Shown in pieces: positions 99 to 266 of a DNA stretch of 11,503 nt. The stretch lies in UHGV virus genome UHGV-1556036; one strand, 5' to 3'. The notes beneath the pieces were generated by a model. The model was not told where the DNA came from, made no database searches, and saw only the letters and a program-made list of their open reading frames with translations. The stretch is from a virus. The position numbers and the translations under genes are program-made. Numbering within the stretch: position 1 is the stretch's first letter; every line of letters begins with the position of its first letter.

Positions 99-167
99 CC
101 TGACTCTGGAAAAGTCAAAGGGGAAAGTGTGTTTGATTTTAGCAAACTGATTCGGGAGATTCGAGTG

Positions 168-266
168 ATGGCTGAAAAATTATCCACCTGGAAGTTCATT
201 CTTATCTGGCTGGTGTTTGTGATTATGGCCTCCGGTTATTTCATCGGTCAGATACGCTGGTGGTGA
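168..266 (+). CDS. Hypothetical 33-aa single-pass membrane peptide ([32 protein letters not shown]), stop abutting the Rz start
   Basis: ATG at 168 preceded by GGGAG at 154-158. Hydrophobic core of about 20 residues. Stop TGA at 264-266 is followed by one A and then the Rz ATG at 268. Not in the supplied ORF track, which starts at about 60 aa. Coding status is unproven. Confidence 0.35.

Follow-up and report, generated by a model that had tools for sequence, protein, structure and literature searches.

The symE/SymR pair, reportedly described by Kawano, Aravind and Storz in 2007, involves a cis-antisense RNA of ≈77 nt whose promoter lies within the opening codons of the ORF that it targets. 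SymR is said to cover the symE start codon, Shine–Dalgarno (SD) sequence and 5′ UTR and to end at an upstream intrinsic terminator, and SymE itself is reportedly a soluble protein of 113 aa that cleaves RNA and has an SOS promoter of its own. In phage lambda, the dual-start holin/antiholin S105/S107 has an sdi stem–loop, two starts that are 2 codons apart and three transmembrane (TM) helices. Morons (HK97 gp15, for instance), which Juhala et al. are said to have described in 2000, reportedly consist of a promoter, a gene and a terminator on the gene's strand. The term moron is also used in PMC4104026. The AsxR/AgvB, EcOnc and Pas RNAs are short, terminator-ended and antisense to the Stx-type late operon, at moron sites (PMC4104026; bioRxiv 10.64898/2026.05.13.724894). 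Among the type I toxin–antitoxin (TA) pairs of prophages, hokW-sokW aids the release of Sakai Sp5 (PMC8621323).

Here, we describe a small cassette in an 11,503-nucleotide stretch of DNA from the virus genome UHGV-1556036 (referred to below as the window) and compare it with these systems. The unit of ≈210 bp (58..266, plus strand) fills a variable slot between the endolysin gene R and Rz, and consists of two hairpins (H1 and H2), an SD and a 45-codon ORF for a membrane peptide, to which a predicted antisense RNA may be added. The geometry of that RNA, which is so far a prediction, matches symE/SymR, but its target is a 45-aa membrane peptide that lacks a promoter. The cassette resembles hok/mok/sok in encoding a small prophage membrane peptide and in that the predicted antisense RNA would be aimed at an upstream start rather than at the payload's own; by analogy with hok/sok, we propose that the peptide might be produced on induction and affect killing and phage release. 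There is no sequence relation to that system, however, and no Hok/Gef Pfam match; hok is transcribed from a promoter of its own into a long, structured mRNA, and mok overlaps hok out of frame, whereas the cassette leader is in frame. More generally, classical type I toxins usually have their own promoter, but none fits between H1 and the ORF. Two in-frame starts, a lysis-region membrane protein, a hairpin occluding the first SD and a long form with extra N-terminal charge are all reminiscent of lambda S105/S107, although the cassette starts are 13 codons apart, the peptide has one TM helix, and its family is not confined to lysis cassettes and lacks holin homology. Like a moron, the cassette is a small accessory unit between conserved late genes, with presence/absence and replacement polymorphism at known insertion hot spots; in contrast to a classical moron, its terminator lies upstream of the gene and its only predicted promoter faces the opposite way. 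The predicted RNA would be terminator-ended and antisense to the late operon, as are AsxR/AgvB, EcOnc and Pas, but those RNAs have other positions, either downstream of Rz or in the stretch from Q or stx to the holin. Our literature searches returned no described type I TA system or antisense RNA at this position.

The original prediction called a 33-codon membrane-peptide ORF directly upstream of Rz, and the sequence confirms this observation: GGGAG at 154–158 is spaced by 9 nt from an ATG at 168–170, 32 sense codons lead from there to a TGA at 264–266, and the single base A267 separates this stop from the Rz ATG at 268. The abutment is kept in all lysis-region copies (TGAAATG, TAACATG or TGACATG). 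The ORF does belong to a real gene for a single-pass peptide, but its extent had been underestimated. The frame is open upstream to GTG129, preceded by the SD AAGGGGAAAG at 119–128, yielding a 45-codon gene (129..266, plus strand), and it is the 45-aa form that is conserved in relatives. The 33-codon ORF first called could at most represent an additional start within this frame.

This internal start is itself conserved. At codon 14 (ATG168), 22 of 23 modules have a Met, with an SD-like GGAG or GAGG 8–10 nt before it, and both GTG129 and ATG168 have conserved SDs in the module comparison. The internal GGGAG is built from a rare CGG/AGG followed by Glu encoded as GAG, not the commoner GAA. From the sequence, two products of 45 and 32 aa are plausible; the short form (154..266 on the plus strand, with its SD) would correspond to the TM core. 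A variant from Dryocola retains only the part from approximately the internal Met onward, behind an unrelated short N-terminus.

Downstream lies the gene for the 155-aa i-spanin Rz (268..735, plus strand), with Rz1 embedded at 488..673; in matching records, Rz is annotated as “lysis protein” or “Rz-like spanin”. The apparent lack of an adjacent endolysin gene, noted in the original prediction, reflects where the window begins: in a 99.9%-identical chromosome, a lysozyme gene ends 31 nt before window position 1, so that the endolysin adjoins the cassette just outside the window. The lysozyme gene is preceded by a class II holin gene, and the peptide ORF sits in an R–Rz gap of 298 nt. The Gly/Ala-rich hydrophobic N-terminus of the lysozyme suggests a SAR-type enzyme. 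Further along the window, a 283-aa ORF (1037–1888), labeled “hypothetical protein” or “terminase” in matching records, is located just before the gene for the terminase large subunit and overlaps the terminase start at 1869. It contains low-complexity near-repeats (SAQKNAQKSAQ...), with repeated GCGCAAAAA-type DNA at ≈1190–1350. The terminase ORF of the window (1869..3575, 568 aa) has an intact reading frame; in a 99.9%-identical prophage of E. coli G8 (locus L001, 7869–11719, equivalent to window ≈1869–5719), the terminase and portal genes are frameshifted pseudogenes in RefSeq.

The G+C-rich hairpin H1 (60..92, both strands) lies between an upstream A-tract and a downstream T-tract. The terminator scan gave a stem of 14 pairs, six of them G–C, followed by the T-rich GTGTTTCC, in agreement with the terminator-like hairpin of the original prediction, and on either strand H1 resembles an intrinsic terminator. 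An H1 with a variable distal stem occurs in 21 of 23 modules, 23–39 nt upstream of the start codon. The mean folding energy is −22.1 kcal/mol on the plus strand and −19.7 kcal/mol on the minus strand. The upstream A-tract AAAGCGAAAG, which constitutes the minus-strand U tail, is conserved. The second hairpin, H2 (96..126, both strands; TTTCC-TGACT/AGTCA-GGGAAA), was found from folds. Its 3′ arm contains the first SD, which H2 pairs on the mRNA; on the minus strand, H2 is the 5′ stem–loop of the predicted antisense RNA. The hairpin is kept while its stem varies by lineage (TGACT/AGTCA, CCTTG/CAAGG, CCTG/CAGG, CCTTCTG/CAGAAGG and CGTTA/TAACG). Compared with dinucleotide shuffles in 15 lineages, the H2 region had a mean z of −2.17 on the minus and −1.27 on the plus strand (Stouffer z = −8.4 and −4.9, respectively). 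RNAalifold on a MAFFT alignment recovered the H1 core only, and no plus-strand structure involving the TTAGCA block described below, for which we found no explanation in terms of RNA structure. A long-range plus-strand fold of the second SD with TTTCC was discarded, having z = −1.28 and not being seen in the one other lineage inspected.

The limits of the unit are defined by comparison with other phages. The left edge is ≈10–25 nt before H1, and in lambdoid phages at window ≈57/58. Sakai Sp10 matches the window to ≈57 and then diverges into an antirepressor cassette, and many Stx phages match only at 1–55/64 and resume from 265. The right edge in lambdoid phages is the Rz ATG. The hairpin, which had originally been treated as a separate feature, travels with the ORF and belongs to the cassette, and we consider it very likely that H1, H2 and the ORF together make up one portable unit. 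The promoter scan found no plus-strand promoter between H1 and the ORF, so that the peptide would be made only from late read-through transcripts.

On the minus strand, a predicted extended −10 element, TGCTAAAAT (136..144; the reverse complement of ATTTTAGCA in codons 3–5), is paired with a weak −35, TCGAAT (159–164, minus strand; a 3/6 match). The start codon lies 7 bases downstream of TGCTAAAAT, with the SD, H2 and H1 beyond. This promoter and the terminator would together define a cis-antisense RNA of ≈79 nt (52..130, minus strand), consisting in order of a 5′ end that faces the SD and start codon, the H2 stem–loop, an A-rich linker, H1 and a U tail. The conserved sequence of the tail is CUUUCGCUUUUA; the window has UUUUUACUUUUAUU. 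The predicted RNA folds with −22.6 kcal/mol (z = −3.87), none of 200 shuffles folding as well, and its two-hairpin architecture is found in 20 modules.

The −10 element itself is unusually well preserved. In a 20-sequence alignment, no stretch outside H1 is better conserved than the TTAGCA/TGnTAnnnT block. Of 17 lineage representatives, 12 have TGnTAnnnT and 15 have TAnnnT, compared with a maximum of 6–7 lineages with the motif in 5000 synonymous-codon resamplings. The motif is kept where the encoded residues differ (F-I-K, L-I-L-S and N-S-S, with TTTATCA, CTTATCCTATCA and AATTCTAGCA), and the two modules that lack any −10 motif are the only two that lack H1. Synonymous variability is 0.21 in codons 2–22 and 0.62 in codons 23–44, and the region of low variability matches a promoter footprint; two overlapping translation-initiation regions could explain part of this constraint in codons 1–22. 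Another minus-strand promoter-like site from the scan (251..222) was dropped, as it is not conserved in relatives. Taken as a whole, these features lead us to lean, without great confidence, toward the existence of a minus-strand RNA that covers the peptide start codon, SD and H2.

Such an RNA does not correspond to any of the known RNAs that we considered. PasA, PasC and PasD lie between the esterase and holin genes, AsxR and AgvB near PR′ or stx, EcOnc33 at the 3′ end of the esterase gene, and EcOnc10/11/12 downstream of Rz, outside the R–Rz gap. In window 1–1100, Rfam returned only the rimP leader, whose score of 29.2 bits (E = 0.019) falls short of the gathering score of 47 and whose match covers essentially just the terminator; none of its sRNA families (Esr41, AgvB, AsxR, STnc100 and others) came near the gathering score in the same region. 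None of the Sakai Hfq peaks listed in Sp6 and Sp10, the two prophages checked, fall in the slot (PMC4104026 Table S2), but both carry a different slot allele, and the catalog is therefore uninformative on the predicted RNA. Separately, window 801–858 on the minus strand, after Rz, has ≈90% identity to the Sakai site of EcOnc10/11/12, Hfq-crosslinked candidate sRNAs located at 1946819–1946867 on the minus strand, just downstream of Sp10 Rz (PMC4104026 Table S2). Judging from this match, a copy of this Hfq-bound RNA is probably present on the antisense strand of the window.

The strongest competing explanation dispenses with the antisense RNA. The cassette might encode an ordinary small membrane protein expressed late, with H1 insulating it as a plus-strand terminator or 3′-end stabilizer, the two SDs and H2 setting the ratio of long to short isoform as in a dual-start motif, and the constraint on codons 1–22 reflecting initiation signals. 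H1 is more stable on the plus than on the minus strand in 17 of 21 modules and may be mainly a plus-strand element; the conservation of both SDs and both starts, and the pairing of the first SD by H2 on the mRNA, are consistent with this explanation. Furthermore, the −35 is weak, and the sigma-70 two-hexamer promoter scan did not call the TGCTAAAAT site. However, nothing in such an arrangement explains why TGnTAnnnT survives residue replacement and vanishes together with H1, why the A-tract upstream of H1 is conserved, or why H2 folds better on the minus strand. Nor does it explain phage PhiR12_1, in which the same H1–H2–SD sequence runs directly into an ORF of a different family, phrog_1115. 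The coding nucleotides of this ORF differ from those of the peptide ORF, although the leader peptides may be distantly related; yet it has a strong −10 hexamer, TATACT, at nt 8–13, the same position in the ORF. We regard an ordinary late protein lacking antisense control as possible, but rather unlikely.

The cassette is widespread. Of 5426 complete E. coli genomes, 924 (17%) carry the 209-bp unit, mostly unannotated, and 80 of 80 near-identical IMG/VR copies occupy the R–Rz position, where insertion between normally adjacent genes and presence/absence polymorphism are as expected of a moron. The order of promoter, gene and terminator on the gene's strand, also expected of a moron, is not found, since the terminator precedes the ORF; only on the minus strand would promoter, RNA and terminator fit that layout. 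Across the family, with the loci of divergent members obtained through exact-protein contig look-ups, the cassette occurs in a variety of settings: between Rz and an endolysin gene of any of four kinds (the window, locus L007, SPN3UB, Citrobacter and Providencia); between the baseplate genes gpV and gpW (Rac-SA53, Yersinia, SEN34 and Dryocola); downstream of a 1294-aa protein (Brenneria and Symbiopectobacterium), of Mu-F/DUF2513 head genes, or of lambda-type gpK and gpJ; among ParE, RelB, HicAB, BrnA and PrlF-YhaV morons before terminase; and as a tandem cassette pair in one phage-like contig. The copies in phage operons (lysis, baseplate, head and tail) are co-oriented with the flanking late genes, and several moron-island copies have neighbors on the opposite strand. 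In the tandem pair, located at 4001–4141 and 4223–4360 of a SU10-like phage contig (locus L095), each cassette has its own H1 and H2, and the second peptide (MDFRPLVDFMKDG...AIRWW) is very divergent.

The R–Rz gap also houses other small membrane peptides. Related phages fill it with other single-TM ORFs from PHROGs without an assigned function, namely phrog_1115/4493/3246 and phrog_4906, the latter including Sakai ECs_1966 and ECs_5713. There are one to four such ORFs in tandem per gap, with four in one phage, and several of them end in IRWW directly before the Rz ATG. Examples are found in vB_EcoS-783R2 (locus L114, 1623–2108), PhiR12_1 (L112, 1626–1954) and Sakai Sp10 (ECs_1966; L115, 5625–5771). 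In SPN3UB (L004, 2203–2313), an unannotated 36-codon ORF (MSKRDVSALCFLMAAAVAISGNDGWGWLIFAGIIIL) encodes a membrane peptide upstream of the cassette; it starts at an ATGA overlap with the lysozyme stop and has a weak PHROG match to phrog_14810. The first 13 codons of the phrog_1115 ORF in PhiR12_1 also end in Met, and the 5′ part that it shares with the cassette thus looks modular, the TM payload being exchangeable. In the Dryocola clanedunensis prophage, three small TM ORFs occur in a row between gpV and gpW (L013, 3680–3990): a phrog_1115-like ORF, an unassigned ORF and the core of the phrog_6632 family, to which the window peptide belongs. This array has neither the H1 hairpin nor the minus-strand −10 motif, which indicates that the peptide array also travels without the RNA elements.

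These settings bear directly on the proposal that the peptide is an accessory dedicated to lysis, whether as antiholin, as holin-like factor or as a partner of the spanins, with translation coupled to Rz. The abutment of stop and Rz start in every lysis-region copy speaks for it, the slot evidently favors membrane peptides, as shown by its one to four other small TM genes, and two in-frame starts recall holin/antiholin pairs. On the other hand, neither Rz nor an endolysin adjoins the copies in TA-rich moron islands or in the operons for baseplate, head and tail, four different kinds of endolysin precede the cassette where one is present, and the peptide matched no holin in Pfam, NCBIfam or the annotated PHROGs. 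A position in the lysis cassette is clearly not obligate, and a dedicated lysis function appears improbable. The original suggestion of a lysis modulator tied to the spanins holds insofar as the peptide may affect lysis, but the tie to the spanins does not extend to the same unit in its other contexts, and the label “spanin-coupled lysis modulator” is too narrow.

The peptide has the features of a small integral membrane protein, the claim of one TM helix being upheld by two methods. Hydropathy analysis (Kyte–Doolittle, 19-residue window) gave scores of 2.0–2.1 for residues 23–42 in the 45-aa numbering, equivalent to one TM segment, and AlphaFold2 with the family alignment modeled helices at residues 4–17 and 20–41 with a break between them (pLDDT 81.6). 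At 45 aa and with one TM helix, it is within the size range (<60 aa) of small hydrophobic TM peptides such as type I toxins. Five of its six basic residues are N-terminal, from which an N-in orientation is predicted. According to these models, the peptide would be located in the inner membrane, with a cytoplasmic amphipathic N-terminal helix, a C-terminal TM helix and a short RWW end.

The phrog_6632 HMM matched the window protein over positions 1–45 of 45 (E = 1.2e-29) and the homologs in SEN34 and SPN3UB with E = 3.5e-24 and 3.9e-23. The PHROG entry has no assigned function and describes neither RNA elements nor context. Scans of the peptide and its slot neighbors against Pfam, NCBIfam and PADLOC gave no useful match to toxin, holin or defense families; in Pfam, the peptide had nothing better than E = 0.1, and Hok/Gef was not among the matches. 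By tblastn, the peptide was found at full length in H-19B and many Stx1a, Stx2a and Stx2c phages, and with identities of 88% in Rac-SA53, 69% in the Salmonella phages SPN3UB and FSL SP-016, and 53% in SEN34. An exhaustive HMMER search of 1.84 billion representatives yielded only 41 family proteins, nearly all of 32–86 aa (44–54 aa for uninterrupted forms), and the loci fetched for 11 of them were all in phage or moron regions. Family members share the pattern x-x-[SI]K-[LI][IV]RE[LIV]R-x-M-x-E[KR]L-x-x-W[KR]F, followed by the TM segment and often an RWW end.

In ≈17 diverged lineages, the ORF has kept both its full length and its frame; dN/dS is 0.04–0.27 at a between-cluster dS at or near saturation (about 0.8 to >2), and near-identical alleles differ by six codon variants, all of which are synonymous. 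Two of the checks named in the original prediction, conservation and synonymous-site variation, point to a coding sequence, and the internal SD and ATG are conserved as well. Because the ORF is full length in every relative, with low dN/dS and synonymous-only variants, a chance ORF is excluded, and we conclude that the peptide ORF is almost certainly a real gene. That it is instead spurious, as the original prediction had allowed, and lies within a non-coding spacer, or that it is what decay has left of a larger inserted gene, is extremely unlikely: the lack of PGAP annotation in most genomes and the frequency with which 33–45-codon ORFs arise by chance in 300 bases would permit it, but the family match, the 41 representatives, the phage or moron location of all 11 fetched loci and the selection on near-saturated sequences do not.

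We consider it about an even bet that the cassette encodes a late-expressed membrane peptide under antisense control, similar to a type I TA system, in which both the RNA and the function are deduced from sequence. The cassette would have been inserted, co-oriented, into the late operons of many phages, in this case between endolysin and Rz/Rz1. Q-modified polymerase ignores terminators in lambdoid late transcription; in a lambdoid phage, the Q-antiterminated polymerase would pass H1 and produce the peptide mRNA. Meanwhile, a constitutive minus-strand promoter in codons 3–5 would direct synthesis of the ≈79-nt antisense RNA ending at H1. By base-pairing to the peptide mRNA at its start codon, at the SD and at H2, this RNA would put a second lock on the first start, in addition to H2, which already buries the first SD. 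The peptide would then be off in the lysogen and during early infection, and at least its long form would be made once late mRNA exceeds the antisense pool, after which it would kill the cell or modulate lysis from within the inner membrane. A role as toxin or lysis modulator is put forward tentatively; the activity itself is a guess, with killing or depolarization, an effect on lysis timing, and exclusion all possible.

A still more speculative extension, which we think rather doubtful, is that the cassette represents a class of promoterless type I TA-like modules residing inside late operons, in which a modular 5′ part is combined with exchangeable peptides and the antisense RNA sets a threshold. 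The 5′ part would consist of a two-way terminator, an SD-burying hairpin, a 13-codon leader that includes the antisense promoter, and a second start; the payload would be a single-helix membrane peptide (phrog_6632 or phrog_1115/4493). The long and short forms of the peptide might be antagonistic, and the antisense threshold would restrict the peptide to late times.

In lambdoid phages, the gap between R and Rz serves generally as a slot for small membrane peptides without an assigned function. If the proposed mechanism is correct, the cassette would add both a toxin family and an RNA family to the type I TA-like systems, with an unusual organization that has no toxin promoter, a terminator upstream and a modular leader. 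Standard annotation almost never calls the cassette, although its carriers include H-19B and many Stx1a, Stx2a and Stx2c phages, in which it sits in the lysis region that governs the burst of Shiga-toxin-producing cells. An antisense-checked late membrane peptide at this position could shift lysis timing, burst size or toxin release, and would, if real, take part in tuning host killing, lysis timing and Shiga-toxin release in about one-sixth of E. coli genomes.
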